Shown: one piece after another, positions 7,762 through 38,405 of the stretch | Layout: the number at the start of each line of letters is the position of its first letter | How positions within the stretch are numbered: position 1 is the first letter of the stretch | NCBI GenBank assembly: GCA_013203315.1 | Contig: JABMQJ010000020.1 | Span: 6,774-70,773 of the forward strand | Length of the DNA: 64,000 bases | Direction: 5' to 3' | Source of the DNA: Candidatus Omnitrophota bacterium | GTDB taxonomy: Bacteria; Omnitrophota; Gorgyraeia; JABMRN01; RBG-13-46-9 | Position numbers and translations under genes: made by a program | The notes under the pieces: model-generated | Told to the model about the DNA's origin: nothing | Databases searched by the model: none | Seen by the model: the letters and a program-made list of their open reading frames with translations, nothing else

Positions 7762-8655
7762 ATGAAAAAAACTCTTTTAATTTTCCTATTTCTTGCTATT
7801 GCTTTATACTCTTTTCCACAAAACGCATTCGGAGGAGCGTGGACCCTTCCTCAATACAAAGTCTGGGGCGAATATTCCTTTAAGTGGCAATGGGCAAAAG
7901 AAGATTTTGGTGACGACTACAAAAAAAAGAAAAAAGGTCAAGACGCCCGTTCCTGGGATTTCATAATGGAGCCCAAGGTTGAAATAGGCATAACGGACTC
8001 ATTCAATCTTTTGTGTTCAATGGAATATAAAGAAAGTAAATATAAAGAGTATGGCCGTCCGGATGACTGGGGGCCGTATAGAAGAAAAAATAACGGCGTA
8101 AGTTACGTAAAGGTCGGGGGCAAATTACGGTTCATTGAAGAGCCATGCGTAATAAGCGGTCAAATAAAAGGCTATTTTTATACCGGTTACGGCAACGATC
8201 ACGGTGATGATCCTGCATATAAAAACCAGCCTGCCATAGGAGACGGCGATGACGCGCTGGAATTACGTGGCTTGATCGGAAAGAGATTTAAGCTTAATAC
8301 GCCCCTTGAAGACTGGACATTGCCATGCTATGCCGGTCTGGAGGCAGGATACAGGTGGCGAAATGCAGCCGTAGCTAATGATATACCTATATTCGTTGAA
8401 ACCGGCTTTTGGCCGTTTAAATGGCTTCTTATAAAAACAGAGCTTGATACAATCATAGCCCACCGTGACACGGGTAGCATAGATAAAGACTATGCAGTAT
8501 GGCGCATAGGCCCCGTATTCCAGATTGCCGGGGATAGCGCCTTAAGAGAGGGTAAGCGAATACTGAATATCGAGCTTCAATACGGCCTAACCGTATGGGG
8601 AAGAGAGACTTCCGCCTATCAGGAACTTACCCTAAAAATACAGGGTGCGTTTTAG
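7762..8655 (+). CDS. hypothetical outer-membrane beta-barrel protein
   Basis: Signal peptide. Rich in aromatic/Gly alternation and ends in '...LKIQGAF' (C-terminal Phe, an OMP signature). No recognisable family. Confidence 0.4.
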   Translation: MKKTLLIFLFLAIALYSFPQNAFGGAWTLPQYKVWGEYSFKWQWAKEDFGDDYKKKKKGQDARSWDFIMEPKVEIGITDSFNLLCSMEYKESKYKEYGRPDDWGPYRRKNNGVSYVKVGGKLRFIEEPCVISGQIKGYFYTGYGNDHGDDPAYKNQPAIGDGDDALELRGLIGKRFKLNTPLEDWTLPCYAGLEAGYRWRNAAVANDIPIFVETGFWPFKWLLIKTELDTIIAHRDTGSIDKDYAVWRIGPVFQIAGDSALREGKRILNIELQYGLTVWGRETSAYQELTLKIQGAF

Positions 8656-8952: not shown

Positions 8953-9213
8953 GTGATTAAAATGAAGATAAGTGACAAAAAATTTCACAGGGTAATCGCG
9001 GTAATGGATAGAGAGGATATAGATTACCTGGATAAGATTGGCAAGGATTCGCTCTTTACTACAGGCGTTAAGCTTTCCAGGATCAAGATTCTTCGCGCCA
9101 TGGTTGAAGCCATGAAGGAACTTGGCGTAAACGGAAAGTACGTTAAAACCGAAGAAAAGCTAAAAGACGAGATCCTGAAAAAGCGTGCTCATTATAAAGA
9201 AGGTACGATATAG
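8953..9213 (+). CDS. small riboswitch-controlled protein, possible ribbon-helix-helix DNA-binding protein
   Basis: 86 aa (or 83 aa from ATG 8962). Predicted beta-strand 'RVIAVMDRE' followed by two helices. Directly downstream of GEMM-I aptamer #1. Confidence 0.45.
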   Translation: MIKMKISDKKFHRVIAVMDREDIDYLDKIGKDSLFTTGVKLSRIKILRAMVEAMKELGVNGKYVKTEEKLKDEILKKRAHYKEGTI

Positions 9214-9328: not shown

Positions 9329-9610
9329 ATGAGAAGTGGCAAAAGGATTCTATTAGCGCTCGTTGTCCTTTGGGCCGCGGTTTTCCTGGTTCAAGATGTG
9401 GCGTTTTGCCGTTCAACCAGTCTTACAACAACGCTCTATATAACGGTGAAGGCGCCTCCAAAAGGTAATATAGCGCCCAGCGATAAGAATCTTGAGGCGG
9501 TGGAGAAAATAGCGAAAGATCAGGCAATGACAGCGCCTAACATAAAAGATGTTGCGCCTGAAATTAAGTTTTCTGGAGGTAAGATATACACCATAACAGA
9601 CACGCTTTAA
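9329..9610 (+). CDS. small secreted protein (signal peptide), c-di-GMP riboswitch-controlled
   Basis: 93 aa. Strong RBS. N-terminal signal peptide 'MRSGKRILLALVVLWAAVFLV'. Its stop abuts the convergent 1497-aa gene. Confidence 0.55.
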   Translation: MRSGKRILLALVVLWAAVFLVQDVAFCRSTSLTTTLYITVKAPPKGNIAPSDKNLEAVEKIAKDQAMTAPNIKDVAPEIKFSGGKIYTITDTL

Positions 9611-12600
9611 TTAGAAGTACTTGATCTTTATGGTTTTTTTCTCGAGGATAAAGTCTTCGTCTTCCAGCTTATCTTTAGGCTCTACCGTTATGGGCCTACT
9701 GGCGCTGGGAGAGGCTAATCGATACTGCTTAGGCAGGCGTTTGGTATCTATGTTAAGCTCGTATTCGCCGGGGTATACGTATTCAAAAATAAAACTTCCG
9801 TCAGAAAAAGAATACGTGTCCCTGTATTCCGGGGTAAGGAATATCCGCGCATTCGGAACCGGAATATCAAGGTCTTCCTCAAAAATACCGTTATCGTTAA
9901 CGTCGACGTATATCTTGCCTTCTATTGTTCCCGCCGCAACAACGATAAAAGTTGTTTCCGAAGTTTTAAGCTGTTCCACCAAGACATCCTTTGTCGCATC
10001 GCCTCTTATCATCATGTCAACAGGAAGGCCCCTCATGTCTAACCTTACTTTTCTCGAGCCGGGTACTACTTTTTTGATAAATGCCTTACCACCGGCGTTT
10101 GTCTGGGCGCTTCTTCCTTCAACAACGTAAGCAAGGACATCTTTCATGCCTTTGTCGTCCTTATCCATTTTTTTGTTTCCGTTTGCGTCCTCAAAAACAT
10201 ATACCTTTATCCTGCCCCATTTCTCAGGGGTTGTAATATCAAAAACATGCCTGACAAGAAATAGAACGGACCAATCCTGTGTCGACCTGTAGGTATCGTA
10301 TAAGTCCATGTTATCGGCTTCGTAGGTTAGGCTAAGGGTCGTGACCGGCGAAGGGTTATAATCAATGCCCGTGGAAAACGAGAATATAGAGCTGTTAGCT
10401 ACGGTATCCTGGAAGGCGGTCCGCAACCTGCAGTCTCCGGAGAAGCTAAGATAGGGCAGCAAATAATACCTGCCTGAGAGGGTCGTGTTCCATACCGATG
10501 AGGTCGGCAGGCCGTTCATTGAGAGTTGTTTTGTTTTTGTCAAATCCTGATAAAGCCTTATATAAGAACCGTTTAATTCCGGGAAATATTTATACAGGGT
10601 AGCGGATGCCATGTGATAAAAATTACTGCCGGTACTTCCGCCGAGCGGGTCGGCTCTGTAATATTGATATCCCAACTGCAAGGAGGCTGTTCCCATGGTT
10701 TTGTAATAATCGAAGGAGTAGGTTTTGTAATAGCTTCCGGAAGCGTCCTCGTTGCCTCCGTCCGTAAGGTTGCGACCGTAGTTCCAACCGAAAGAAATAT
10801 TCTGATCATAGGGGAGCCTGTAGTTGAACCCCGTGTACGCGCTCCTTGTATACGAGGTAGTCTCGTCTTTGTTGAAAGCGACGTTATCCCTGCTTACGGT
10901 TCCCGACATATTGAGGCTAAAGTCTTTACTTATTTTAAAGCTTGAACCTATGTCCCAGCCCATGTAGTCCTGATATGTCGTGGGAATACCGATAGACGCG
11001 TATTTATCCCCGATAAACTCGAAAGAAGTGTTCATGTTAAAACGATCGTGCTTGTATTTTATTCCTGTTTTATAATCGAGATCGCTTACAAGTTTATCGC
11101 GCTCGTTATCGGGAAAATAGTTTGATTGGGCATAAGTGTTGTAGAAATTAAAATTCGGAAATACCTGCCAGTCGCTATCCAGTAAATAAACAAAATTCTT
11201 TCTCGGATGAGCGGTGGCGCCTGAGTCCTCTGAAAATTCGGCTTTGTTATATACATACAGTTCCGTCGCGGAAAATTTGAACGTGTCTGTGTCGACCCAA
11301 TCCTGTTTGGAAGCGTAGAGTTCCCCGAAATACTTCACGGTACCGCTACCTTCAGACCTGGGGATAGATATAGCGTCCATCTCACCTGCCCAGAAAGTGG
11401 CCTTTACGGGGGCGTCCTTCTCGGCGTAGTCCATTTCAACGCCCCAATACGGCTGCGACTGCGCTCTTACACTGGGAAGTCTCATGTAATTATCAAGTAG
11501 CTTCAGCGTGTTGTTGTTCTTGGAAAAGGATAAGTGCTGGGCATCTTCTTTCCATGTGTGCTTATCCGATGTATCATAGTCCCTCATGCTCAAATGGCCA
11601 AAAACATCCAAATCGTGTATCCTGCCATTCAGGTAATATTCGTTATACCTCGTGCGCTTTTCTTCAAACATGTCCTCAAAATACCTGAAACTTGCGTCTA
11701 GCTTTAAGTCTATGTCGGGTTGATATTCTGCCGGCAAAAGTTCTTCTCTCACTTCGCGGGGTAATTTGGGGACATCTATTTCTGCTGCCTCTTTCTTCTC
11801 TATTTCCTCAAGCGACATCGGGGGCTTTTCAATCGTGAACATGGTGAGCTCCGGCTTTTCGCCTCTTGTAAATTTCACAAGATTTTCTTCGGGGAAATAC
11901 TTGTATGAAATGCCGGTTGCATCCTTAACTGAGCCCAGGCTTAACAAAAAATTGTCATTATAAATAGCTAAAGGCTTGCGCATGGTAAGAAACGGCTGCT
12001 TGCTTACAAGGCCTTCGGTTTTGCCTACATTCATTTCGAGGGGGATACCGTCATATCTTATGATAATAACAGTCAGGGCTGCGGGCTTCATAAATGTGAG
12101 CCCTATCTGATCGGTAAGCTCTTTAAGAGGGGTCCAAATCTCGTTTCCCTTGCGCAGGCATGGGCTTTCAAACTCAAATTTTTTACCCGCGAATTCAAAG
12201 GCTATATTTCGGTCTATTTCGTAACCGGAGAAATCATATCCGGTCGGCCTCATCCTTCTTGCCTCCACCCATTCGCCTTCCGGGATTCTTTCCACTTCCT
12301 CAACCGTGACTTCAGGGGTTTCCAGGAAAGCGGGTTCCTCTTCGGTAATAAGCGTTCCTCCAGGAATTTCTTCTTCACGCAAGAGAGCAAGTGGTTCTGT
12401 TTCTTCCGGGGTAACCTCCTCGACGGTAACTTCCGCTATAACTTCCTCTATGGTAAGTCCCTTGACGGCATCTTCTTCGACGGCAACTTCCCTTACGGGC
12501 TCTGAGACACGCTCCCTGCGAGTTTTCTTCCCGGCAAACTTTTTTCTTAAAGCGTTTATAAAATTTTTGAAACCGTTCAGCATACCGGCGCGCCTTCCGG

Positions 12601-14104
12601 AGCCGACAAGGGAGGCTTCTGTGGCTGCCTGCTTTCCGGCTTCCCTGGATAACGCAACGAAATTACCCACCGTTTCAGTATTTTGTTTAAGCCCATCGCC
12701 TACTTGTTTGGCGTATTCATTTATGCGCTGGCTTGGGGATGCTGCCGGTGCAATTTCAGCTTCCTCGGTAACGCTTACAATTTCCTTGGGGGCATCGCCT
12801 GTTATGCTTTCTCTTTCGGCGGTTACAAGGGGTGTAGTACTTGCATAATTTCTTAAACGCGTTGCTGTGCTGTCTAGATTTGCCTTCAAGTCGGTGCGCC
12901 TTTCAGAATTAATGAAATATACCTCTTCGGTTACTTTCCTTCCGACCCCCCTTGATGTCGTAATGAATCTTCCGATATTAATGATTCCGTTTTTTATATA
13001 TTTTCCGAAATTCGGTAGCTCTCTTTGGGGCAGGATTCTTTCTCTTTGAGGAGCCATCTCTTGGGGGGCTATTCTTCTTTCCTGGGTTAATCTTTCAGGA
13101 ACCCTAAGCGGCTTAGAGATTTTCTCTAATATTGCGGGTTTTTTTACTTCTGCGGCTCGCTTCGGCATGATACTCGCTACCAGTGATGTTGTCGCAGCAG
13201 GTTTTCTTTTTGCGGGTTTTGCAATAACCGGTTTTTCGACAATCGGCGTTTCCCGGGTAACTTCTTCGATTTCAGGTTCTCTCGTAACTGTGATTTCAGC
13301 TGCTTCTTCAAGTTCTTTTATTTTCTCTTTGCAGCTCCTGACAGCTATTTGTGTCATGTTTTTTGTAATCGATATACGCCTCTTTTTTTCCGGGAAATCT
13401 TCCTCGAGGTTATTTAGTATTTTTAAAACGGTTTTATAATTTTTAAGCGCTACCAGGAATCTCTGGTTCTCTGCGTCAACGGAGGCTTTTTCTAAAAGAC
13501 GGGTTATTTTCTCTATTTCCCTGGAAAACGTTCTGTCTTCCGCCGCCTTGCCGCTAAGGGCGTCTATTTCGTCTCTTAAAACACTTTCCTTGCTTTCTAT
13601 GAGGCGTAGGAGAAGTTTGGCCTCTCTATTGTCGGAAGCGCCTTTTAAAACGAATTCTATCTCGGTTCTGGCGTGGCTATACTTCTTAAGCGCGACGTAA
13701 TAACGGCCTTCGTTTTTCTGGTCTTCCGCGGTGTCGATTAGATTATATGCGTTTTCCAGTTTTTCTTTATATGTATATTTGCTGTTAATATCTTGTTCAA
13801 TATGGCGTATCTGGGTCTTACATTCTTCGATTTTATTTTCCGTGAGATCTTTTAAAAGTGATATACGCTTATTTTGCGGTTCGCTATCCAGGATGTTTCG
13901 GGCAATTGCCAGCGCTTCTTCGTACTTTTGCAGGGCAAACATGAATCTCTGGTCTTCATAAAAACAAGCGCCTTCTTCGACAAGGCTTAAAACGTCGTTT
14001 TCGTTTCCGCTGATTTTGGCATAGGAGTACCCCCAGGAGCCAAAAGTTATAAAAAGGCTCATGATCAAAGTCAACGAAATTAACGAAATCTGCCTTTTTC
14101 TCAT
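9611..14104 (-). CDS. giant (1497 aa) TPR / acidic-linker / outer-membrane beta-barrel / C-terminal beta-sandwich protein, candidate atypical usher of the adjacent pilus-like locus
   Basis: Signal peptide. N-terminal TPR-like helical repeats, a Glu/Pro/Val-rich acidic region, a roughly 600-aa Tyr/Asn/Gly/Asp-rich beta region typical of OM barrels, two CarboxypepD_reg/Cna-B-like beta-sandwich modules, and a C-terminal '...KIKYF'. It occupies the usher position downstream of the chaperone gene. Confidence 0.5.
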   Translation of the reverse strand: MRKRQISLISLTLIMSLFITFGSWGYSYAKISGNENDVLSLVEEGACFYEDQRFMFALQKYEEALAIARNILDSEPQNKRISLLKDLTENKIEECKTQIRHIEQDINSKYTYKEKLENAYNLIDTAEDQKNEGRYYVALKKYSHARTEIEFVLKGASDNREAKLLLRLIESKESVLRDEIDALSGKAAEDRTFSREIEKITRLLEKASVDAENQRFLVALKNYKTVLKILNNLEEDFPEKKRRISITKNMTQIAVRSCKEKIKELEEAAEITVTREPEIEEVTRETPIVEKPVIAKPAKRKPAATTSLVASIMPKRAAEVKKPAILEKISKPLRVPERLTQERRIAPQEMAPQRERILPQRELPNFGKYIKNGIINIGRFITTSRGVGRKVTEEVYFINSERRTDLKANLDSTATRLRNYASTTPLVTAERESITGDAPKEIVSVTEEAEIAPAASPSQRINEYAKQVGDGLKQNTETVGNFVALSREAGKQAATEASLVGSGRRAGMLNGFKNFINALRKKFAGKKTRRERVSEPVREVAVEEDAVKGLTIEEVIAEVTVEEVTPEETEPLALLREEEIPGGTLITEEEPAFLETPEVTVEEVERIPEGEWVEARRMRPTGYDFSGYEIDRNIAFEFAGKKFEFESPCLRKGNEIWTPLKELTDQIGLTFMKPAALTVIIIRYDGIPLEMNVGKTEGLVSKQPFLTMRKPLAIYNDNFLLSLGSVKDATGISYKYFPEENLVKFTRGEKPELTMFTIEKPPMSLEEIEKKEAAEIDVPKLPREVREELLPAEYQPDIDLKLDASFRYFEDMFEEKRTRYNEYYLNGRIHDLDVFGHLSMRDYDTSDKHTWKEDAQHLSFSKNNNTLKLLDNYMRLPSVRAQSQPYWGVEMDYAEKDAPVKATFWAGEMDAISIPRSEGSGTVKYFGELYASKQDWVDTDTFKFSATELYVYNKAEFSEDSGATAHPRKNFVYLLDSDWQVFPNFNFYNTYAQSNYFPDNERDKLVSDLDYKTGIKYKHDRFNMNTSFEFIGDKYASIGIPTTYQDYMGWDIGSSFKISKDFSLNMSGTVSRDNVAFNKDETTSYTRSAYTGFNYRLPYDQNISFGWNYGRNLTDGGNEDASGSYYKTYSFDYYKTMGTASLQLGYQYYRADPLGGSTGSNFYHMASATLYKYFPELNGSYIRLYQDLTKTKQLSMNGLPTSSVWNTTLSGRYYLLPYLSFSGDCRLRTAFQDTVANSSIFSFSTGIDYNPSPVTTLSLTYEADNMDLYDTYRSTQDWSVLFLVRHVFDITTPEKWGRIKVYVFEDANGNKKMDKDDKGMKDVLAYVVEGRSAQTNAGGKAFIKKVVPGSRKVRLDMRGLPVDMMIRGDATKDVLVEQLKTSETTFIVVAAGTIEGKIYVDVNDNGIFEEDLDIPVPNARIFLTPEYRDTYSFSDGSFIFEYVYPGEYELNIDTKRLPKQYRLASPSASRPITVEPKDKLEDEDFILEKKTIKIKYF

Positions 14105-14194: not shown

Positions 14195-15019
14195 TTACTT
14201 TACGTTAAAACTTATTTGCCCCCCTAGGTAATCTTCTCCTCCGTAATCGAGAACTGCCTGAACAAAATACTCTCCCGGCGCAAGCTTCTTTTTGTCATAC
14301 CTAACTGTAAACTCCCTATTCGTCCGGGGGAATATGCCGCCGTCCTGCGAATTAAGTAGGAGTTCGGCTACTTCGGTTTTCGAAGAATCTATTATTTTAA
14401 CCGGGCCGCTTGGTCTTACAAGAATATTGCTGTTATTTCTTACCGTGCAGCTTATGTCAAAAGCGCCGTCTTCATCGGGTTTGCTCACCTTTAAACCCTG
14501 GAGCTCTACATCATAGCTTTCAGCGCCTTTAACCGTTACCAAAAAGATTGATCCGAGCCTTATATTTATTGATGCCCCGGTCGTGGCGCTTAACTCATCT
14601 GCAGGCGGTGATATTTCAAAAAACACAACGCCGTATCTGCCGCCCTTGGCATCTTCCGGAACTTCTACGACATAGCGCACCTTCATCTGGTCCGAAGGTC
14701 CCAGATCAAATTCTGTGGGGCCTATTTTAAGCCAGTCAGCGGCGGTCCAGGGCGTAGTTCCTTCCGGCAGAAAATCATTGCTTCCATCCGGCGCGTAAAC
14801 AAGGTCGTTTACATAGACCTTTACATGTATCGTCTCGTTCTGATCGTAGTTGAGAACGGTTACATACCCGCTCTCAGTACCGCCGGGACTAATGGATAGC
14901 TTTACCCTCGGCGGATCTATGTTCATTTTTATCGCATAAGCGGAAAAATTCATTAAAAATAGAAAAATAACTATAGTGCATGCAAATATCGGTTTTTTTA
15001 TAAACTTAGCAAAACTCAT
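14195..15019 (-). CDS. PapD-like periplasmic pilus chaperone (two Ig-like domains)
   Basis: 274 aa with signal peptide. N-terminal 'IDPPRVKLSISPGG...VTVLNYDQNETIHVKVYV' and 'GGRYGVVFFEISPP' resemble the PapD/CsuC N-domain pattern (conserved Arg in strand A, hydrophobic run then E-I-P-P). Confidence 0.45.
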   Translation of the reverse strand: MSFAKFIKKPIFACTIVIFLFLMNFSAYAIKMNIDPPRVKLSISPGGTESGYVTVLNYDQNETIHVKVYVNDLVYAPDGSNDFLPEGTTPWTAADWLKIGPTEFDLGPSDQMKVRYVVEVPEDAKGGRYGVVFFEISPPADELSATTGASINIRLGSIFLVTVKGAESYDVELQGLKVSKPDEDGAFDISCTVRNNSNILVRPSGPVKIIDSSKTEVAELLLNSQDGGIFPRTNREFTVRYDKKKLAPGEYFVQAVLDYGGEDYLGGQISFNVK

Positions 15020-15519
15020 AATACCTCCACCATAATGAACCTGATATGTGACGTATAAGAACCTGCTGCTTGGTATTTTGGAATTTGTAAGTTATATTTG
15101 AGTTTTATCTGAACCGTTGTGCCCGTATTATCACTGCCTGAGCTTGTATATATCAATACCGGTCTCGTCGCGAAATCGCCGGGACTGCCAACGCTGTTTG
15201 AAACAAGTCCTCCGCCGTTTACCACCTGCTCTACTATCCACTGCATGTTCTCCGCCGGTATGGAATGCTGAGCGCTTGTAAACGGGCGCATCATCTGTAC
15301 CTTAAAATACCACGTTCTTTCGTTATCGGAGGTAAAATCGAACCTGTGTTCGTAATTACCTTTTCTTGTAATCGATTTTTTTTCGTTCATTTGCATGGTT
15401 CCGAAATCAATCGTTTGAAAGCCTTCACCTAACGACATTTCAAAGGTCGCAAAAGATCTTGCCTCCATTAGGACTAGAAGCATAAAAACTAAAATAATGA
15501 AAATCGGCTTTTTAATCAT
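15016..15519 (-). CDS. SCPU/Csu-pilin-like secreted subunit (paralog 1)
   Basis: 167 aa with signal peptide. C-terminal strand 'AGSYTSHIRFIMVEVL' fits the 'G-Y-T-x-T-V-T-V-T' motif shared by the paralogs. Confidence 0.45.
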   Translation of the reverse strand: MIKKPIFIILVFMLLVLMEARSFATFEMSLGEGFQTIDFGTMQMNEKKSITRKGNYEHRFDFTSDNERTWYFKVQMMRPFTSAQHSIPAENMQWIVEQVVNGGGLVSNSVGSPGDFATRPVLIYTSSGSDNTGTTVQIKLKYNLQIPKYQAAGSYTSHIRFIMVEVL

Positions 15520-15523: not shown

Positions 15524-16075
15524 TTACTCTGTCTCCGTAATAAGATATGCTACTTTCAGGCCGTAATGGCCTCCCATCGCCGAACCCGGCAAATCAAGCT
15601 TGTATTGGAATCGCAATATGAGCTCTTTCCCTATCTCATCTTCTGTGTCGCTTGTATATACAACCTGCGGTTCATCTGAAAATTCCTGCCAACCGGGCGC
15701 TGCTATCCCGCGGCCATCTGTATGGTATATGCGCCATTTAAAGCTTTCTGGCGGTATCTGATTCCCTTTTGGGCCTATAACTTCATTAAGAATATGTATT
15801 TTTACGTAATATTTTCTTCCCTTGTTGGCAGCACACTTTATTGTATTGTAATATGTGCCTTCTTTTAATGTTACACTATCTCCGGGGTTAACAACGCCAA
15901 AATTAATATAATTATTATCAATATTTATATCGAAAACGGGAAGGACTACAACTGAGGCAAATATATCTTCTATGTCCTCATCTGCATTGCAAATACAAGG
16001 CACCAGGACAGCAAAAACCACCACCAATGATGCAAAAACCCCTATTATATTACACTTAGCTCTATATATAGTCAT
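15524..16075 (-). CDS. SCPU/Csu-pilin-like secreted subunit (paralog 2)
   Basis: 183 aa. N-terminal hydrophobic segment. C-terminal 'GGHYGLKVAYLITETE'. Confidence 0.45.
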   Translation of the reverse strand: MTIYRAKCNIIGVFASLVVVFAVLVPCICNADEDIEDIFASVVVLPVFDINIDNNYINFGVVNPGDSVTLKEGTYYNTIKCAANKGRKYYVKIHILNEVIGPKGNQIPPESFKWRIYHTDGRGIAAPGWQEFSDEPQVVYTSDTEDEIGKELILRFQYKLDLPGSAMGGHYGLKVAYLITETE

Positions 16076-16184: not shown

Positions 16185-16778
16185 TTAAGGTGCCGTTGTC
16201 ATCGTATATGTTACCGACACCGTATATGTCCGTTCGGCACTAAGCCCTCTTGGGTCAACGCCAAAGCTAAAAGTTGAGAGCGTTCCGAATGGCGTATTGA
16301 CCGTATCCAGAGACCCGGAGGTATAGATATTTGACGATTCCGTAGGTATCGGCGTCCATTCTACGCTGCCGGCTAGGGTTCCGTCTGTTTGCTGGTTTGC
16401 GTTCCTATCCCACGGTTGTGTATAATAGTACTTTGCGTTACCGGCAAACAAGCCTTCTGAATATACCCCCTGCATTTTTAAATACCATGGCACGCCCATA
16501 TTACTGATACACACTACCCCTGTATCGCTCTTTCCGTCATCCTCTTTTCTTCCGTTAGGATATACCAAAGATTTTGTGGGGTCAACATTGCTGAACGGCA
16601 CGGCTGTAGAGTATATCACGCTCGCGTCAGTATAAAATTCCATTGAAAATATACTTGTCGCGGTAACGGTGACGTTTGTCGTAAGAGAGCTGTCTAGAGC
16701 TATTGCGTTGCTCTGCGCTATCAGAAAAACGGCCACCAGGGCTAAGATCTTTATATCTATCATTTTATACAAAGACAC
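16185..16778 (-). CDS. SCPU/Csu-pilin-like secreted subunit (paralog 3)
   Basis: 197 aa with signal peptide. GTG start preceded by GGAGG. C-terminal 'ERTYTVSVTYTMTTAP'. Confidence 0.5.
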   Translation of the reverse strand: MSLYKMIDIKILALVAVFLIAQSNAIALDSSLTTNVTVTATSIFSMEFYTDASVIYSTAVPFSNVDPTKSLVYPNGRKEDDGKSDTGVVCISNMGVPWYLKMQGVYSEGLFAGNAKYYYTQPWDRNANQQTDGTLAGSVEWTPIPTESSNIYTSGSLDTVNTPFGTLSTFSFGVDPRGLSAERTYTVSVTYTMTTAP

Positions 16779-16890: not shown

Positions 16891-16920
16891 GATCGGTGTG
16901 TCTTTTAAGACACACCGATC
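16891..16920 (-). terminator. intercistronic perfect 13-14-bp stem-loop after putative major subunit gene (partial terminator / mRNA stabiliser)
   Basis: Perfect palindrome 'gatcggtgtgtctt tt aagacacaccgatc' 38 nt downstream of the stop of the 16958-17536 gene. A second 6-bp hairpin lies next to it (16868-16888). No clean U-tract. Confidence 0.4.
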
Positions 16921-16957: not shown

Positions 16958-17536
16958 TTATGCTGTTTCGGTTAACGTATAGGTAATCGTACCAGTATAG
17001 GGACCGGGTGCCAATCCTGAGCCATCAACCTTGAAGCTCAAAGTTGCCAGTGTTCCCTCCGGTGTATTGGTTTCGTCTGCGGTTCCAGCTGTGTATAAAG
17101 TTACAGCAGCGCCCGTGAGATCGAACCAGGTTAGATCACCATATGTTCGGCCACCATCTGCAGGTGTACCCCAGTTTCGGTTCGTAGGTTGGCCCATGTT
17201 ACCGGCCAATTTTGTAAGAAGCGGTGATGCAGCGTTCATTGCGATTTTCAAATACCAAGGATTTCCCTGGTTTGATTTTATCGTAAGACCTACATCTGAT
17301 TTACCGTCATCTTGTGCTCTTCCGTCTGCATAGTTGTATGCACTTGACGGGTCTACAGTGGAAAACGGAATGGCTGTCGAATACAGTACATTCGCGTCCG
17401 TGTAAAACGCCATCGAGAATATGCTACCAACTGATGCAGTAACGTTTGAATTGAGTGTCTGGTCAGCTGCATAAGAAGCACCTGCTATCGCGATTGCGAA
17501 TAGCATTACCATAGATGTAATCACTAGTTTTTTCAT
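16958..17536 (-). CDS. SCPU/Csu-pilin-like secreted subunit (paralog 4; putative major subunit)
   Basis: Start moved to the Met at 17536 (RBS AAAGGAGG 6 nt upstream), giving 'MKKLVITSMVMLFAIAIAGASYA' as signal peptide. C-terminal 'GPYTGTITYTLTETA'. Own upstream region of about 270 nt, and the strong hairpin downstream. Confidence 0.5.
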   Translation of the reverse strand: MKKLVITSMVMLFAIAIAGASYAADQTLNSNVTASVGSIFSMAFYTDANVLYSTAIPFSTVDPSSAYNYADGRAQDDGKSDVGLTIKSNQGNPWYLKIAMNAASPLLTKLAGNMGQPTNRNWGTPADGGRTYGDLTWFDLTGAAVTLYTAGTADETNTPEGTLATLSFKVDGSGLAPGPYTGTITYTLTETA

Positions 17537-17656
17537 TTTGTTCACCTCCTTTGTTTTGTTTTTAAATTGTTTTAGTAACCCTTTATTTAGCATTTCTGTT
17601 TTTCCCATCATGTCTTTAGTATATCATATTTAGTTTTTCCTGTGGTCACGGCTGAG

Positions 17657-17808: not shown

Positions 17809-18411
17809 TCACGCTGAAAGCGTCATCGTAAACTGAATTTGACACGCATAATTATTGTTAGCGTCTAGCTGGCTTGGGTTAATCGCAAAACTGAAACCGC
17901 AGAGGGTGCCCTGCTGCCATGTTTCAGCGCCCATATTATTTAAATCGTTGGCTCCTGCTGTAAAAATTCTCGCAGGTGATGTGGGAAGGGGCTGCCATCC
18001 TTCTATCAGTGCTCCGTTTGAAGACTGGCCATACCTCATGTTCCATGGTCGCCAAAAACCGTACTTTACCTGCTCTAGGAAAAAACCGCCCGGGCTTCCC
18101 TGAATCTTTAAATACCAGGTTTCACCAAGGTTGCTTTTGCATAATAGGCCTATGTCGTTGTTCCCGTCACCCTGAGAACGATTATCAGCCTGGACCCATG
18201 TTTTTGTAGGATCCATATTTGTAAAGGAAACCTGCGTGGTATATAGATATTTACTAGGTTCGCCCGTATAGAACTCCATCATAAAAATATTGCTAACATC
18301 AAAGCTACCTGCAGCTATTACGGTTCTTGTTTCAGCAAAAGAAGATTGGCCTACAAAGCTTGCGGCCGTTACAGTCAGTAAAAGAGTGGTTATTAAAAAT
18401 ATTTTTTTCAT
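17809..18411 (-). CDS. SCPU/Csu-pilin-like secreted subunit (paralog 5)
   Basis: Start moved to the Met at 18411 (RBS AAGGGGGG). Signal peptide 'MKKIFLITTLLLTVTAASFVGQSSFA'. C-terminal 'NNYACQIQFTMTLSA'. Confidence 0.45.
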   Translation of the reverse strand: MKKIFLITTLLLTVTAASFVGQSSFAETRTVIAAGSFDVSNIFMMEFYTGEPSKYLYTTQVSFTNMDPTKTWVQADNRSQGDGNNDIGLLCKSNLGETWYLKIQGSPGGFFLEQVKYGFWRPWNMRYGQSSNGALIEGWQPLPTSPARIFTAGANDLNNMGAETWQQGTLCGFSFAINPSQLDANNNYACQIQFTMTLSA

Positions 18412-18525
18412 ATTAGCCCCCCTTAGTATCGTTTTATATTCTAACAAAAAAAATGTGCAAAGTAAACAAAAAAAGCTGACTTTTTCATATCTAACTTATT
18501 TTTAATAACCCTTAGCCCTTTATCA

Positions 18526-19920
18526 TCACATCGCGCCTGAACCCGAAAACACAACGGGGATTGTTTTTAATAAAAGTTTAAGGTCCATCCATAAGGACCA
18601 GTTATCAATATATTCCAAATCTAATTCCATCCATTTATCAAAATCAAGCATGCTTCTGCCACTTACCTGCCAGATACATGTTATGCCGGGCTTCATGCTG
18701 AGCCTTCTACGCTGCCAGTCTTCGTATTTTTCGACTTCCTCCTGAATAGGGGGTCGCGGACCTACAACCGACATATCGCCTTTTAATACATTGATAAACT
18801 GGGGCAATTCATCTATGCTTGTCCTTCTCAAAAAACGGCCTATGGGGGTAAAGCGCGGGTCTTTTTTAATCTTAAAAATGGGTCCCCTCATTTCGTTTAA
18901 GGCCTCTAACCTATCTTTTATCTCCTCGGCTCCCACCACCATGCTTCTGAACTTTAACATAATAAATTTTCTTCCATTCAGCCCCGTTCTTTCCTGTTTA
19001 AAAAGAACGGGGCCCGGGGAAGTCCGTTTTATGACTACTGCCACCAATAAAAACAAGGGGCTTGACATAACCAATACGAGAAGAGAAAAGATTATATCAA
19101 ATAACCTTTTCAGGAAAAGCTCTTCCTGCCGAATAAATATTGTATTGAAACTTACAAGCGGAAAACCGCCTAGGCTTGCAAAGGTCCCTTTGGCAATTTT
19201 TAAATCATAAAGATCCATCGCAATGTGGGTTCTTATTCCTTCCAGTTCGCATTGAATAATACTTTTTTCTATTTTGCTCAGCCACGACCTCGGAACAATA
19301 TATACAACCTCATCAATAACCTCTGCATGTAGAATTTCGGTCATATCTTTCAAAAGACCCGTAACCTTTATCCCGCATACCTCCATATTAAGCCGGGCCG
19401 GATCGTTATCTATTATTTTCATCACCCTGAGCCCCCATTGCGGATGCTTGTTAATCAGATTGATAAATCTCTCTGCCCTTAGGCCGGTGCCTACTATCAA
19501 GATGCGCCTGTAATTATAGCCCTTTCGCCTTATATATCGGCTAACACCTATTATGGTTAACTTTTCAAATAATAATAAACAGATTGCGAGCGCCAAGAAC
19601 GCAATTAAAAACTCCCTTGTAAGATACGGAATTCTAAGAATATAAGCCGCGGAAATGAAGAATAGACTCGCCAAGAGGCTCCCTTTGACGACCAACCCCA
19701 TAGCGTCTATGATTCCTCTTATTCTGAAAGATTTATATAATCCTAAATAAATAAATATATTTATCCATACGGGAACGATAATAAAAAGTGGCCATAGATA
19801 TTGCTCTACTGCATAAGGCAGGGATTCTACATAACAGGCTACTATATAAGCGCCTGCTATAAATATACTGTCTGCCAGCATTATTATTTTTCTTAAAAAA
19901 TTTTCTCTTTCCTTTATCAT
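18526..19920 (-). CDS. undecaprenyl-phosphate sugar phosphotransferase (WbaP/WcaJ-like priming glycosyltransferase)
   Basis: 464 aa, N-terminal TM helices. C-terminal bacterial sugar transferase domain ('DELPQFINVLKGDMSVVGPRP', 'KPGITCIWQVSGRS'). Confidence 0.7.
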   Translation of the reverse strand: MIKERENFLRKIIMLADSIFIAGAYIVACYVESLPYAVEQYLWPLFIIVPVWINIFIYLGLYKSFRIRGIIDAMGLVVKGSLLASLFFISAAYILRIPYLTREFLIAFLALAICLLLFEKLTIIGVSRYIRRKGYNYRRILIVGTGLRAERFINLINKHPQWGLRVMKIIDNDPARLNMEVCGIKVTGLLKDMTEILHAEVIDEVVYIVPRSWLSKIEKSIIQCELEGIRTHIAMDLYDLKIAKGTFASLGGFPLVSFNTIFIRQEELFLKRLFDIIFSLLVLVMSSPLFLLVAVVIKRTSPGPVLFKQERTGLNGRKFIMLKFRSMVVGAEEIKDRLEALNEMRGPIFKIKKDPRFTPIGRFLRRTSIDELPQFINVLKGDMSVVGPRPPIQEEVEKYEDWQRRRLSMKPGITCIWQVSGRSMLDFDKWMELDLEYIDNWSLWMDLKLLLKTIPVVFSGSGAM

Positions 19921-20077
19921 AACCGGCCCTTTTGTAATAGAACCCGCTCAATTACGCAGATTGTTCTCACATAATCATATAATAGCATAATCTCTATCAT
20001 AAATGGTAACGTAACCTTAATAATACGATGAAAGTTATGTAACAAAATGTAGCAGATGAGAGGACATTTTTCACTGT

Positions 20078-22357
20078 TTACTGAACCCCGCTGATTCTAA
20101 GGGCTACATCTTTCTCAAACGACGGAACCTTTATTGCCATTCCCTTGCCTGATGAAACAGCTTTTTCTCGATACAAGGGCCTCGCCTTCCATGTATCCCA
20201 CCATTCTATGCTATATTCCCCATTGGGTAAATCAAGAACTTCTAATGTTGCCCCTTTTACCTCTTGTGGTTTAATTCCTTTATAACTATTGTACCAATTA
20301 CTCTCTTTATTTTGTATCCAGAATATTGCCTCTTTCCCGCACTGCAATCCCAACACGCGGATATCCATGGATGAGCCTTTTTTATAATTTGTGAGCACAA
20401 CCTTTTTAATAGAAAGCCAATCTTTTCCGACATTCTCCAAGCGTATGATATGCTCACCTTGAGGAATGTTAATTTTACAGTCCTCCATGTAGTCATACTG
20501 ATATATCCCCCACTCATCCCGGTATCTCCTTCGCTTCCAATTCCCCTTACCCTCGGGAGTCTCCCCGGGGAATTCTCTGCTAAACATTTTTTGGCCATCC
20601 ACATATACGTTGAGCACTGCACGCACAGAAACTTGATCTACTGTGATAATAAATTCTCCTTTGCGGGGGTAATTAACTCTGAAAACAGGACATACGCGTA
20701 TATCCTGTTTATCCATACCATGAAGATACATATTTAATTTACCGCCTTTTAAGGTTCCGTTGTTTAATGCTTCGATTTCTCTATCATCTTCATTACCCCA
20801 ATCGTCCGCTACAGGTATAGATACATCGCGATTACCTATTGCTCCTTGGTGTACATTGTCTTCGGGGTATACGTGAAATTTGGCTCTACCCCAACCATTT
20901 CTGGGTAAATTTAAATTCTTAACAAATAAAGAAAATGTCTTGTAGTGCTCGTATAAATTTTTTTGATTAATATAATCATCCCACCACCAATTCATCGCAC
21001 CGCCAAGGGCTTGAGAAAAAAGACCCGCCCATAGGCAGTTATGAATATGAATTCCGTTTCCTACGGTATCGTAGAATTTATCGCTTTTCGTACTATCTAT
21101 GCCGTATTCGCCTATCAAAGATGGTTTACGATACTTCGTTACATACTGCATTGTTTTATAATTGATAGTATCAACCAGATCACAAAAGGCCCCTCTGCGT
21201 CCATAAATGTGGACCTGCGAGAAATCTATAGAGGGTAATTTCCAGATTTCATCTTCGTTAAAACCATTGAACTCGAGCATCCCTATGCTTGTTGTCACAA
21301 GATGGCCATGAGGATCGATATCCTTTATATACTCTGACATTTCTTTAACCCAAAACACGGGGGCATTTGTTTCATTCCATAATTCAAAAGCGAGTAAGTT
21401 TTTATAGGCTCCCCACCGGGCGACAATATAACGTAATCGTTTTTTATAATACTCTTGCGCGTTTTCATTTGTCCAAAATTCTGCGGGGCTTACACAGGGT
21501 CCGCCATTAGACGCATTATATGGATTGCGACCCCATTCCGGGACGCCCCAAAATATTTTATGTGCGGCTAACTCTTTGTAATTTCCCAGAACCAGGATAA
21601 CATATAACCCCTTTTTGTCTGCCTCCTTCAAAATATGATCGAGGCGCCATGCGTTCCGGAGATTATAGCGCCCCAATCCGGAGAAACCCTCCTTTGAAAC
21701 ATTATTTTTAGCCCATTCCAGAGCCAAATTCCAGGAAACCATCCAAATGCGAACAATATTACACCCATTATCAGATAATTTTTCAAAATAAGAATCGTAT
21801 GCGTATGTCTGCTTACGATCTGTCCAGCCTACATTCTCTCCTATGCCAAAGTAGATTTCACCGGAATCAAAAAACAAATAAGGTGTAGAGCTAGCTCGCA
21901 GAAATCCTGGCTTAATAGATTTCGTAACATTAAAAGTTTCTTCTTTGGTTCTCAATTTTCTCTTTCCGAATTGTGCTGTTAGAAAAACACGATAAATTCC
22001 TATCTCTCTTGGCGTAAAGCGTACCTTCCACTGAGGAGAACCTACTGCTTCCAATATCTCACGGCCTTCTGATAAATCTCTTGAAAACCCCTGGTAATAG
22101 AATGCAGGTATAATTAATTCATTCTGGTTCGGTGAGATAAAATGGGCTTTTATATCGACCTGGTTAGGATCAAAGGGGTTATCAAAAACACCTTTCGTAT
22201 CTATATCAAGCTCCAAGATATCAAATTGCTTAACCGGATGTTCTATTTTAACAAATGAAATATGAGGACCATCTTTCGCAATGACTGCACAGGACGCGAA
22301 AATAATCAATAAAATAAGAATCGGTTTTACTAGCATTTTTAGCTGTCCATATTTCAT
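20078..22357 (-). CDS. secreted glycoside hydrolase, GH5-family TIM barrel with N-terminal Ig-like (DUF5060-like) domain
   Basis: 759 aa with signal peptide. 'AFELWNETN' (clan GH-A catalytic acid/base NE motif) and a second Glu in 'LIGEYGID'. Confidence 0.5.
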   Translation of the reverse strand: MKYGQLKMLVKPILILLIIFASCAVIAKDGPHISFVKIEHPVKQFDILELDIDTKGVFDNPFDPNQVDIKAHFISPNQNELIIPAFYYQGFSRDLSEGREILEAVGSPQWKVRFTPREIGIYRVFLTAQFGKRKLRTKEETFNVTKSIKPGFLRASSTPYLFFDSGEIYFGIGENVGWTDRKQTYAYDSYFEKLSDNGCNIVRIWMVSWNLALEWAKNNVSKEGFSGLGRYNLRNAWRLDHILKEADKKGLYVILVLGNYKELAAHKIFWGVPEWGRNPYNASNGGPCVSPAEFWTNENAQEYYKKRLRYIVARWGAYKNLLAFELWNETNAPVFWVKEMSEYIKDIDPHGHLVTTSIGMLEFNGFNEDEIWKLPSIDFSQVHIYGRRGAFCDLVDTINYKTMQYVTKYRKPSLIGEYGIDSTKSDKFYDTVGNGIHIHNCLWAGLFSQALGGAMNWWWDDYINQKNLYEHYKTFSLFVKNLNLPRNGWGRAKFHVYPEDNVHQGAIGNRDVSIPVADDWGNEDDREIEALNNGTLKGGKLNMYLHGMDKQDIRVCPVFRVNYPRKGEFIITVDQVSVRAVLNVYVDGQKMFSREFPGETPEGKGNWKRRRYRDEWGIYQYDYMEDCKINIPQGEHIIRLENVGKDWLSIKKVVLTNYKKGSSMDIRVLGLQCGKEAIFWIQNKESNWYNSYKGIKPQEVKGATLEVLDLPNGEYSIEWWDTWKARPLYREKAVSSGKGMAIKVPSFEKDVALRISGVQ

Positions 22358-23142
22358 TGCTTTCTCCCCTTATTGTCTTTTTTTAGTTTTTCTAATAGAA
22401 GGTAATAAAAAAATATAATTGCGTCTTTTAAGTATCTTTTCCAAAGCCTATACGGTTCCATCATCACCCGCCAGAACCATTCCAAACCTATTTTCTGCAT
22501 CCACTCTGGCGCTCTCTTTATATTACCTGAAAGAAAGTCAAAGGATGCCCCAACCGCCATTAATACAGAAACGCCGAGTTCATCTTTATGCTTCCAGATC
22601 CATTTCTCCTGTTTGGGTGCTCCTAAGCCTACAAATAAAAATTCCGGTTTTTTCTCCTTTATCACTTTTACTATCTTTTGGTTTTCCCTCTCATCCTTCT
22701 CAAACCCGAAAGGAGGTGAGTGTGTTCCAACAATTTCTAATTCGGGATACTTCATTTTTAAAATATTACCCGCTTTCTCGGCCACCCCCGGTTTAGCCCC
22801 TAAGAAAAATATTTTATACTTATTCAGAGCAGCGGTCCTGCATAAAGCAGGGAATAAATCTGAGCCCGAGATTTTTGATTTCAGAGGTTTCCCCAGAAAT
22901 TTCGCGGCCCATAGTATCGGCACTCCATCGGGTAGAAGAAAAGAGGCCCTATCTAGAATCGAAAAGAATTCAGTATCCCTTTTTGCCCTTACTAAGACAT
23001 TAACAGGCACGGGGAATATGGTAATATTCCTGCTTGTCCGAACTGAATCTGTGATTACATCCACAAATCTGCCGAAATTGACAGAGACAAATTTCAGGTT
23101 AAAAATCTTCTCGAAATTTATAATGTTAATATCTTTTTGCAT
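22354..23142 (-). CDS. WecB/TagA/CpsF-family glycosyltransferase
   Basis: 262 aa. 'FLGAKPGVAEKAG...GLGAPKQEKWIWKHKDELGVSVLMAVGASFDFLSG' is the family signature. Confidence 0.6.
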   Translation of the reverse strand: MQKDINIINFEKIFNLKFVSVNFGRFVDVITDSVRTSRNITIFPVPVNVLVRAKRDTEFFSILDRASFLLPDGVPILWAAKFLGKPLKSKISGSDLFPALCRTAALNKYKIFFLGAKPGVAEKAGNILKMKYPELEIVGTHSPPFGFEKDERENQKIVKVIKEKKPEFLFVGLGAPKQEKWIWKHKDELGVSVLMAVGASFDFLSGNIKRAPEWMQKIGLEWFWRVMMEPYRLWKRYLKDAIIFFYYLLLEKLKKDNKGRKQ

Positions 23143-24200
23143 TTTCCTAATACCTTGTCAACATTTATCAATTCCATACATTTTTTTCCTTTAAATCTCA
23201 AATTACAGCTTGACTTATAACAAGCCAAGCAAGGTACGGATGGCTCTATTATTTTACCTAAACCATATAATTCGAATTCATTCCTGTTAAATGCGTTATT
23301 AAAAAGCAAGACCTTTTTCTTCAAAGCAATGGCAATATGCAATGTCATAGTAACACAGGTAATAACTAAATCTGTTTGATTTACGAGGTCTGTAAATTGT
23401 TCTAAAGGAAAATATCCTATATATCGCCCCCCACTTTTTCGAGCTATTTCTTTATTTTTTTTGTGTTCTTTTCGGCCGCCTAAAATTAGAACACCATATC
23501 CGGCTTTCCTTAACTTTCTTACCAATTCCACCCATCTTGCTTTCGGATATTCTCTGACTTTCCACTGTTCTCCATATCCGGTATTTAAGCCGATTAACGG
23601 ATGAATAAATACCGGCCACTTAGTATGTTTTTCTATTTCTAAAATATATTTTTCTCCGCTAAAATCAAAACCGCAGAGCTCAAAAATCTCTTGAGGGTAA
23701 CTTTTTTTGTTCTTTTTATTTATATCGTCCCAGATTCCTGTCTTCCATTTGCTAAAAGCATTCTTGTCTATAGGGGCGCATTTACCATCTTTGAGTTCAA
23801 ATCCCTTTTTTACTTTGGCCTTTATTAATTCCGCGAGAGAACAGGCCTCTTTATCTTTATCTAGATTAAATAGAAAATCGAACTTTTGGGCGAAAAGCCA
23901 CAAAATATTCTGTAGATTAAAATCCAAAATGTTATCGACCAGAGAAGGGACAAGTTTCGGAAAACATGTAAGCCAGGATATCTCAGAATGAGGAAATTTT
24001 TCCTTAATCTTCCTTAAGATGGGGGTCGTTCTTATTATGTCTCCTGCTGCCTTTAATTTAATTATCAAAATTCTTTCTGCTACTTTATCGTAATATTTGC
24101 AATCCTCGCATTTAACTCCAAATTTCTTGTGGTACAAGCATGGAATGCCTCCCCTAAAAAACCTGCAGTCTGTTTTCACGGTCTTTGTTATATTAGCCAT
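23118..24200 (-). CDS. GT9-family (heptosyltransferase-like) glycosyltransferase with Cys-rich N-terminal extension
   Basis: 360 aa. 'ILIIKLKAAGDIIRTTPILRKIKEKFP' matches the GT9 N-terminal motif. Preceded by 'CRFFRGGIPCLYHKKFGVKCEDCKYY' (4 Cys, zinc-ribbon-like). Confidence 0.5.
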   Translation of the reverse strand: MANITKTVKTDCRFFRGGIPCLYHKKFGVKCEDCKYYDKVAERILIIKLKAAGDIIRTTPILRKIKEKFPHSEISWLTCFPKLVPSLVDNILDFNLQNILWLFAQKFDFLFNLDKDKEACSLAELIKAKVKKGFELKDGKCAPIDKNAFSKWKTGIWDDINKKNKKSYPQEIFELCGFDFSGEKYILEIEKHTKWPVFIHPLIGLNTGYGEQWKVREYPKARWVELVRKLRKAGYGVLILGGRKEHKKNKEIARKSGGRYIGYFPLEQFTDLVNQTDLVITCVTMTLHIAIALKKKVLLFNNAFNRNEFELYGLGKIIEPSVPCLACYKSSCNLRFKGKKCMELINVDKVLGKCKKILTL

Positions 24201-24204
24201 AGAT

Positions 24205-25185: not shown

Positions 25186-25190
25186 AAAAA

Positions 25191-26210: not shown

Positions 26211-26232
26211 CTTTTTCCTTTTTAATTTTCGT

Positions 26233-27648: not shown

Positions 27649-27666
27649 TGTAGGGAAACGGTTGTG

Positions 27667-30232: not shown

Positions 30233-30244
30233 ATTTTCCTAAGA

Positions 30245-30973
30245 TTAAGTTTTTCCAAAAAAACGGTTATAATGAATTTTGTAAATAAACCGGGCTATGG
30301 TATCGTCTTTTTCTACTTCTATTCGCTTAAGTAAAAAGAGATCCGTTGTCTTGTCATTTTTACCCGGCATGCTCGTGCAAGCACATGTATAACCTGCTTC
30401 TTTCACCAGGTATTTTAAATGTTCGTTAAACTTCGAGCATGGATAGCAGAAAAAATGCTCTCTTTGGTTCAGCGCAGATTCCAGTGTCTGCTTGGATCTT
30501 TCAAGCTCATCCATTATGTCCGGGTCAGAAAGAGACGGTAATTCAACATGATTAACGGTGTGAGAATGAAAAGAAAATCCATGCACGGAAAGAAATCGAA
30601 TTTCATCCCAAGACATAATGTTTATATCGTCTTTCGCCCCTTCGTCCCAATCATTAACACTGCCTATTTTGCCTGTAGGTATAAATATCGTGGCCTTAAA
30701 ACCATAGGACTTTAATATGTCTTTCGCGGAATTTAAAAAGCTTCTGTAGCCATCATCAAAAGTCAAAATGACGGACTTGCTTGGAATATTTTTTTTCGCT
30801 TTTAAAATTTCCGCAAGTTCGCCCAGCTGGAATACAGAATATTTGTTTTTATACAGATATTCCATTTGCCTCGCGAAATCCTGAGGACTTACATAAAAAC
30901 GTTTTAGCTTGTTTTTCATGGAAGTCTTAGCTATATGATGATAGCATAAAATTAGACAACCTCGTCTTAACAC
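30245..30973 (-). CDS. polysaccharide deacetylase (NodB-homology / CE4)
   Basis: 242 aa. 'ILTFDDGYRSF' Asp-Asp motif and 'HSHTVNHVEL' His motif. Confidence 0.6.
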   Translation of the reverse strand: MLRRGCLILCYHHIAKTSMKNKLKRFYVSPQDFARQMEYLYKNKYSVFQLGELAEILKAKKNIPSKSVILTFDDGYRSFLNSAKDILKSYGFKATIFIPTGKIGSVNDWDEGAKDDINIMSWDEIRFLSVHGFSFHSHTVNHVELPSLSDPDIMDELERSKQTLESALNQREHFFCYPCSKFNEHLKYLVKEAGYTCACTSMPGKNDKTTDLFLLKRIEVEKDDTIARFIYKIHYNRFFGKT

Positions 30974-38394: not shown

Positions 38395-38405
38395 TTGATC
38401 CTCTT

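Follow-up and report, generated by a model that had tools for sequence, protein, structure and literature searches.

An usher-like outer-membrane protein with WxLIP-like and probably WxL-like partners in Candidatus Omnitrophota: a candidate surface-assembly platform

What kind of outer-membrane protein stands at the end of a row of genes for small secreted proteins in a Candidatus Omnitrophota bacterium, and what could it be doing there? The gene in question lies on the minus strand at 9611..14104 of a stretch of 64,000 nucleotides (GenBank assembly GCA_013203315.1, contig JABMQJ010000020.1, positions 6,774 to 70,773 of the forward strand), which is called the window here. Its open reading frame (ORF) has an ATG start and translates into 1497 amino acids (aa). 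A sequence-only reading of the window had put this protein in the position of an usher, and had suggested that it might be an export porin for the neighbouring exopolysaccharide (EPS) or a new class of fibre-assembly platform. Judging from the predicted fold, the partner genes and their conservation, the gene would encode the outer-membrane translocation and assembly platform of an undescribed chaperone-usher-like system, a view towards which we lean without holding it firmly.

The protein can be read as a chain of distinct parts, all encoded on the minus strand. It starts with a Sec-type signal peptide (aa 1-29, 14018..14104; beginning MRKRQ, cleaved between SYA and K), recognised in the translation by its basic n-region, hydrophobic core and A-x-A-like cleavage site. 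Next comes a TPR-like helical region (aa ~30-268, 13301..14017), where Fis1_TPR_C reaches 30.1 bits (cut-off 25.3) and matches to MIT and TPR_12 stay below threshold. A variable, charged linker rich in Glu, Pro, Val and Lys (aa 269-612, 12269..13300) takes up 344 aa, with 15% Glu, 7% Pro, 8% Val and 4% aromatic residues. It leads to a putative periplasmic N-terminal domain of about 125 aa that resembles Cu_amine_oxidN1 (aa ~620-746, 11867..12247; Pfam PF07833, 27.1 bits, cut-off 24.2) and, after a second, Glu/Pro linker of 50 aa, to an aromatic-rich beta region ending in 'LFLVRHVF' (aa 797-1291, 10232..11716), which in the structure model forms an outer-membrane beta-barrel of about 26 strands. 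Two beta-sandwich C-terminal domains (CTDs) follow: CTD1 (aa ~1296-1395, 9920..10219), which is SdrD_B-like, and CTD2 (aa ~1396-1497, 9614..9919), which is CarboxypepD_reg-like and has Phe as its last residue. The two are tandem duplicates (hhalign 99.7%) of a Cna-B-like type, and their SdrD_B and CarboxypepD_reg matches in the window protein itself are below the Pfam threshold. This is the domain order already given by the sequence-only reading, although the long linker had been put at about 250 aa. Two Candidatus Omnitrophica metagenome-assembled genomes contain an identical protein, with its start annotated 14 codons downstream of the ATG used here, and an 83% identical one, both annotated as hypothetical. 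Compared with the orthologue, the folded parts show 84-94% identity and zero gaps (93% in the TPR region, 93-94% for TPR region and barrel), whereas identity in the linker drops to 68%, with 65 gap columns; we conclude from this that the gene is real and evolves under purifying selection.

Relatives are not found easily. Word-indexed protein searches return only two close orthologues and one distant relative, while an exhaustive HMMER search with the beta region gave only 42 representative relatives among 1.84 billion proteins. Every full-length relative has a beta region of ~500 aa with ~200 aa after it and 170-790 aa before it, and the long linker is missing in most family members, where the N-terminal part is just 170-400 aa. 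When 29 family members were compared with Pfam, SdrD_B was matched in 29/29 (up to 1e-18), CarboxypepD_reg in 26/29, Cu_amine_oxidN1 in 14/29 and TPR families in about 10/29, with weak porin-type matches in a few. Usher, PapC_N and PapC_C gave zero Pfam matches in the window protein (E <= 0.1), the 29 relatives and 8 distant relatives, and none of the secretin or EPS-porin models (BcsC, PgaA, AlgE, Poly_export) matched the window protein or the 29; secretin models likewise found nothing in the 8 distant relatives. There is no Pfam or NCBIfam model for the barrel of this family or for its small partner proteins, and a sequence search of the barrel against the PDB gave no match.

At the level of the fold the picture is different. 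An AlphaFold model of aa 790-1497, based on a 33-sequence alignment, reached a mean predicted local distance difference test (pLDDT) of 89.6 and, in the DSSP string from which strand number and topology were taken (not the coordinates), shows 26 long antiparallel strands with short turns alternating with slightly longer loops, followed by the two sandwiches. This bears out the large outer-membrane barrel that had been claimed from the sequence. A single-sequence AlphaFold run on aa 611-1497 was uninformative (pLDDT 28). In a Foldseek comparison of the model with the PDB, full-length FimD/PapC ushers fill the first 11 places (E 2e-18 to 5e-13), with TM-scores of only ~0.3-0.39. The 26-strand barrel MtrB comes next at E 7e-9 and has the best TM-score (0.44-0.47), followed by usher pores alone (~1e-8), SlpA (7e-7), and TonB-dependent transporters and LptD (~1e-6 to 1e-5; LptD ~6e-6). 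By this ranking the overall fold is closest to solved ushers, and a feature of ushers, two C-terminal periplasmic beta-sandwiches behind the barrel, is present in the 1497-aa protein. The earlier statement that it matches no standard usher thus holds for the sequence and fails for the fold, and its likening to secretins or PgaA/BcsC rather than to ushers is borne out neither by Pfam nor by Foldseek. MtrB and LptD share the predicted number of 26 strands, and MtrB also encloses a protein, but here there are no cytochrome partners, no LptD-type jellyroll and no sequence similarity.

A profile built from four E. coli ushers (FimD, HtrE, YehB and EcpC) was also aligned with the family. The hhalign match is 78.7% (E 1.7e-5) and co-linear, pairing window aa 1126-1400 with the last FimD barrel strands and CTD1; controls with a reversed profile gave 3.3% and shuffled ones <=0.3%. 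The signal is additive, barrel and CTD1 together giving 65%. It is worth bearing in mind that small hhalign profiles are insensitive: EcpC, a bona fide usher, scores only 6.6% against the other three ushers. The remote-homology comparison favours FimD/PapC ushers in Foldseek and gives a weak co-linear match in hhalign.

The genes next to the barrel gene are informative about its role. Upstream of it on the same strand stand, in order, three ~200-aa paralogues, a 183-aa gene, a 167-aa gene and a 274-aa gene, all six with signal peptides and without a significant Pfam or NCBIfam match. The last of these (14195..15019, minus strand) encodes a secreted two-domain protein without a membrane anchor that is a candidate chaperone. 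As a single sequence it has no PDB sequence match. A family profile of seven orthologues matches EfmWxLIP1 in the PDB over its full length (9i25_C and 9i1y_A, E 3e-4), with the fimbrial chaperone EcpB third at E 0.14. Against five WxLIP proteins from Gram-positive WxL loci on plasmids, hhalign gives 97.6% (E 3e-12) over 230 columns spanning DUF916 and DUF3324, and these profile comparisons show the 274-aa protein to be a homologue of WxLIP throughout its two domains. In Pfam the seven members match WxLIP_HBD (4/7) and WxLIP_PGBD (2/7), both below cut-offs, and four of the seven match Cep192, which has a PapD-like fold; PapD itself is matched in none of the seven. The C-terminal membrane helix of WxLIP is absent, all seven orthologues ending directly after the second domain. 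Similarity to PapD-type chaperones is weakly indicated by hhalign against five E. coli representatives (67% local, in the N-domain, and 79% global, with controls <=0.7%). WxLIP consists of two perpendicular Ig-like domains (Hassan et al., PMC10599100), and in AlphaFold predictions one of its strands completes the WxL sandwich (PMC10599100), the same logic as in donor-strand complementation by PapD.

The five other small proteins form one family, in which the ~200-aa group and the 165-183-aa groups match each other at 99.2% (hhalign). Alignment of the ~200-aa group identifies three type A paralogues on the minus strand: copy 1 of 212 aa (17809..18447), with its true start probably at an internal MKKIFLITT, copy 2 of 217 aa (16958..17611), with its true start probably at an internal MKKLVITS, and copy 3 of 197 aa (16185..16778). 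Alignment of the shorter groups adds, on the same strand, a type B paralogue of 183 aa (15524..16075) and a type C paralogue of 167 aa (15016..15519) without the N-terminal 'ED.xASVxV' strand that types A and B have in common. A merged profile of these subunits aligns end to end with seven WxL domains in hhalign (65% local, 75% global), while controls stay at <=1.4%, the upper bound over reversed, shuffled and unrelated beta-family ones being 2.3%; among the controls, those in local mode are relied on. The invariant W-x-L of the subunits ('WYLKI'; W119, L121) aligns with the first WxL motif, and their C-terminal 'Y..tI.fTmTe.P' with 'Y.ttltWnL...P'; the second motif here is Y/F-T-L/M. The five proteins are thus probably WxL-like. 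Among 21 subunits, the Pfam WxL model was not matched and neither were SCPU or Fimbrial, and the 'SCPU-like' label that these neighbours had been given earlier is dropped. Searches of the PDB with single sequences and profiles gave no match for the subunits, and against E. coli pilins hhalign reaches only 3%. The second subunit gene is followed, about 40 nt after its stop codon, by a perfect palindromic hairpin with a 13-bp stem (16891-16920, GATCGGTGTGTCTT..AAGACACACCGATC). It is not taken for a terminator, since the coding strand lacks a T-tail; it could stabilise the mRNA or act as an attenuator that sets subunit stoichiometry.

This arrangement is not peculiar to the window. A search from the barrel side gave ten further loci, and in 10/10 the subunit and WxLIP-like genes stand before the big gene on the same strand: one to five ~200-aa genes, a ~175-aa gene, a ~165-aa gene, a 257-293-aa gene and then the big gene. 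Three of the ten are Omnitrophota genomes, from a search with a 4-sequence alignment. A metagenome search from the opposite side, with the WxLIP-like chaperone candidate, gave 80 loci. Where 3 kb or more of downstream sequence is available, 40/43 loci have a large ORF of the barrel family directly behind the WxLIP-like gene, and 45/53 with upstream sequence have a match to the subunit family there. The family is present in many sediment, groundwater and soil metagenomes. The usher position proposed earlier has thus turned out to be a conserved operon of subunit, chaperone-like and outer-membrane protein genes; orthologues lying apart from pilin- or chaperone-type genes were looked for, and the linkage held in both the 10/10 and the 40/43 loci.

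Among the big ORFs found from the WxLIP side, 21 form a distant clade that the barrel hidden Markov model had missed. It aligns with the near family at 100% in hhalign (E 8e-58, 870 columns), and its GC (guanine and cytosine) content ranges from 0.34 to 0.66. Its proteins have a single N-terminal TPR and the same two C-terminal domains, and in 8/8 tested the Cu_amine_oxidN1-like domain is replaced by PF13629 (T2SS-T3SS_pil_N, 'pilus formation protein N-terminal'), which has no match in the window protein itself. From this strict two-way synteny and the distant clade it follows that the module of subunits, WxLIP-like gene and big gene is conserved much more widely than in Omnitrophota-like genomes. 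PF13629 is also the N-terminal domain of CpaC/RcpA among the secretins of Tad, type II and type III systems, and it holds the same periplasmic N-terminal position in the distant relatives. Unlike secretins, however, the family has no secretin domain (PF00263), and the model shows a closed monomeric barrel rather than a multimeric pore. Identification as a secretin, as LptD or as a TonB-dependent transporter was rejected on strand number, missing domains, synteny and the Foldseek ranking. Several variants of the gene set were seen. Eight distant-clade loci (L055, L061, L064, L069, L074, L093, L099 and L057) have one subunit-like protein of ~460-480 aa with the C-terminus 'YSTxIVYSLxEI' plus one protein of ~205-215 aa ('YDGTLLISATLV'). 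The clade sometimes has two or three WxLIP-like genes, or tandem big outer-membrane genes (L064, L074), and in L070, L071 and L097 tandem WxLIP-like pairs occur with the big gene absent downstream.

Taken together with known systems, the module resembles two of them in part. Like FimD and PapC (Usher PF00577), the 1497-aa protein has a large monomeric barrel between a periplasmic N-terminal domain and two C-terminal beta-sandwiches, and like them it is encoded behind subunit genes and a gene for a periplasmic protein with two Ig domains. With the WxL clusters of Enterococcus, Lactiplantibacillus, Listeria and Bacillus it shares a homologue of WxLIP (DUF916 plus DUF3324), small proteins that align with WxL domains including the positions of the W-x-L motifs, and the gene order WxL then WxLIP. 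In contrast to those clusters, the host here is a diderm, the WxLIP-like protein is soluble, LPXTG partners are absent, the second W-x-L motif is altered, a giant barrel protein is added and there are up to seven subunit paralogues. Measured by the defining sequence and structural features of the usher, PapD, pilin and canonical WxL families, the system belongs to none of them. The searched literature contained no description of such a system, and nothing linking WxL or WxLIP to diderms or to usher-like proteins. Fold, WxLIP homology and synteny all favour the earlier suggestion of a new class of fibre-assembly platform.

How might such a platform work? The five paralogous small proteins would be exported by Sec and probably fold as WxL-like beta-sandwiches. 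In the periplasm, the soluble 274-aa protein with its two Ig-like domains would hold them by lending a beta-strand, a step modelled on the predicted WxLIP-WxL pairs and the known PapD-pilin pairs. The 1497-aa protein may then receive these complexes at its periplasmic N-terminal domain and its two C-terminal sandwiches, and the subunits would travel through the ~26-strand barrel and emerge at the cell surface in the form of a fibre or a surface-anchored complex. By inference, a tip-like subunit that enters a strand-exchange polymer first would be expected to lack the 'ED.xASVxV' strand, as the 167-aa type does. The extended TPR arm with its linker would be a periplasmic extension specific to this clade, which may recruit cargo or reach the wall or the inner membrane. 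Since a beta-mannan utilisation locus surrounds the system in this clade, the surface product may bind glycans.

Several observations weigh against this interpretation. Homology of the 1497-aa protein to ushers is suggestive and not established, because the barrel alone matches the usher profile at 0.4% and CTD1 alone at only 25%. The predicted template modelling score of 0.68 leaves the relative placement of domains in the model uncertain. Ushers carry a plug inserted in the barrel, and here there is just a 5-residue turn between strands 6 and 7 in the DSSP string; the strands number about 26 against 24; the N-terminal domain belongs to another family, being Cu_amine_oxidN1-like or, in the distant clade, PF13629; and the CTDs match SdrD_B and CarboxypepD_reg far better than any usher model. 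The TPR repeats and the 344-aa linker are additions that ushers do not have. The link between subunits and WxL domains is moderately supported by the profile alignments, Gram-positive WxL proteins are not known to polymerise, and both the fibre and the surface exposure of the subunits are deduced here from genes and predictions. Some of these points speak equally against the idea that the gene is simply a true classical usher, in an ordinary chaperone-usher pilus operon that has drifted extremely far past sequence recognition. That idea would account for the usher matches at the top of the Foldseek list, for the hhalign match over barrel end and CTD1, for the gene order of subunits, chaperone and outer-membrane protein, and for the resemblance of the 274-aa protein to PapD-like chaperones and EcpB. 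It has to face the missing plug, the two extra strands and the different N-terminal domain, as well as the absence of any Usher, PapC_N, PapC_C, PapD_N, Fimbrial or SCPU Pfam match in ~37 big proteins, 7 chaperone-like proteins and 21 subunits. In addition, the chaperone-like protein is far closer to WxLIP than to PapD, and the subunits barely match E. coli pilins. A classical usher is thus unlikely, though of the alternatives it deserves the most attention.

Other alternatives start from the surroundings of the module. Directly upstream in the window lies a Wzx/Wzy exopolysaccharide cluster (18526-36977), with a priming transferase (18526-19920), WecG, GT9, GT1 and GT2 glycosyltransferases, four radical-SAM proteins, a deacetylase, Wzx, Wzy, PCP and a short 256-aa OPX (36207-36977) that has no obvious barrel partner. 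The 1497-aa protein, with its N-terminal TPR, might then be the outer-membrane export porin of this cluster, whether as a TPR-porin comparable to BcsC, PgaA and AlgK-AlgE or by serving the OPX as its barrel partner, and no other barrel is evident among the EPS genes. However, the GC content of the cluster is 0.36-0.40 against 0.43-0.45, and no EPS genes are found at this position in 10 other loci. In the closest relative (L001), genes for ROK and a sugar-binding protein directly precede the subunit genes with no EPS cluster between; their counterparts in the window stand on the far side of the cluster (37.2-39.7 kb) and share 91% and 87% identity with the L001 copies. The 18.5-kb low-GC cluster is therefore a strain-specific insertion with its own export genes, and the barrel gene is linked instead to the subunit and WxLIP-like genes. 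TPR-porins have 16-18-strand C-terminal barrels and belong to synthase-dependent EPS operons, whereas here there are ~26 strands with two domains behind them, EPS genes are never conserved neighbours, and Pfam models for BcsC, PgaA, AlgE or Poly_export are not matched. An EPS porin, as also proposed in the sequence-only reading, is contradicted by the synteny and has become very improbable. A 759-aa DUF5060 protein is encoded at the edge of the insertion (20078-22357, minus strand), and L004, L013 and L016 also encode DUF5060 proteins downstream of the module, where Cellulase or CBM9 are their neighbours.

Beyond the insertion, a beta-mannan utilisation locus (37168-52248) encodes the sugar-binding protein, ROK, GH116, two GH113 (one with F5/8 type C), two Mann_GBD/CBM27 proteins, ABC permeases, a phosphomannomutase, an MFS_2 transporter and a GH130 mannooligosaccharide phosphorylase. 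All 11 near-clade loci are flanked by genes for ROK, sugar ABC transport, sugar-binding proteins, DUF5060, CBM9, Mann_GBD/CBM27, GH113, GH116 or GH130, and these common genes identify the conserved context as a locus of beta-mannan-type utilisation. This echoes the role in carbohydrate utilisation that PMC1534035 proposes for the WxL (csc) clusters of Lactobacillus, among them those of L. plantarum. The whole could then be a glycan-capture or uptake complex of the mannan locus, with the barrel serving as a channel for import or as an anchor and the small proteins binding glycans at the surface as lids or partners, akin to SusCD, surface glycan-binding proteins or csc complexes. The protein lacks a plug or TonB-box domain, though, and eight distant-clade loci, viewed only as ORF lists, have no obvious sugar genes nearby. 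Export, rather than import, is also what the usher-like periplasmic domains and the periplasmic chaperone-like partner fit better. We regard uptake as rather unlikely, slightly more so than a diverged usher, and as regards the final function of the surface product it is compatible with an assembly platform. Since WxL domains bind peptidoglycan in Gram-positive bacteria (PMC10599100) and the 1497-aa protein has a long periplasmic arm, an envelope tether or S-layer-type anchor comparable to Deinococcus SlpA or Veillonella OmpM was also considered, where the arm would bind the wall, the barrel would anchor the outer membrane and the WxL-like proteins would be wall-bound periplasmic partners. No SLH or other known wall-binding domain was matched by Pfam in the window protein and 29 relatives, the long arm is missing in most relatives, and two C-terminal periplasmic sandwiches with multiple paralogous subunits are untypical of such tethers. 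SlpA moreover ranks far below the ushers in Foldseek, and a tether seems hardly more probable than an EPS porin.

The system probably has a further component. Abutting the stop codon of the big gene, and convergent with it, lies a gene for a 93-aa secreted protein (9329..9610, plus strand), and the same pattern, position and orientation recur in 9/9 loci that have downstream sequence. The protein measures 75-108 aa across loci, with relatives at L004 5663-5989, L005 13025-13267, L006 12870-13109, L013 3970-4197, L014 11589-11864, L015 7217-7474, L016 9419-9712 and the end of L001. It has a signal peptide, a strand-like 'ES..lTT.v.Iiv.PER', a linker rich in Pro, Ala, Thr and Glu, and a C-terminal 'G...lYT..e.L', and may be a strand-only accessory, e.g. 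a plug, an initiator or a terminator. Just upstream of it, an 86-aa protein without signal peptide or Pfam match ('REDIDYLDKIGKDSLFTTGVKLSRIKILRAM'; 8953-9213, plus strand) has a clear homologue in the same position in L014 (11946-12221) and might act as a regulator. At 7762-8655 (plus strand) a 297-aa protein is encoded that has a signal peptide, contains many aromatic, Gly and Asp residues and ends in '...QGAF'; it looks like a small outer-membrane barrel and has no Pfam match. Elsewhere in the window, a 2689-aa ORF without a Pfam match at E <= 0.001 (52363-60432, minus strand) adjoins the gene of an AcrB-family transporter (60605-63745).

Going further than the window, it is conceivable, although we put this forward only tentatively and would not count on it, that the module is the first example of a widespread, undescribed class of diderm surface assembly with WxL-type subunits, a soluble WxLIP-type chaperone, and export or polymerisation via a plug-less 26-strand usher-like barrel, and that Gram-positive WxL/WxLIP complexes and chaperone-usher pili have a common strand-complementation ancestry. 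If the gene does encode an assembly platform of the kind proposed, a new lineage would be added to the few known pathways for the assembly of outer-membrane fibres and surface proteins. WxL and WxLIP, so far known only from Gram-positive bacteria, would gain a mechanistic interpretation as a chaperone-subunit pair, and a link between WxL clusters and chaperone-usher pili would be open to test. For Omnitrophota and other uncultured diderms, it would mean a conserved surface structure encoded inside glycan-utilisation loci, which may mediate attachment to polysaccharides or host cells.

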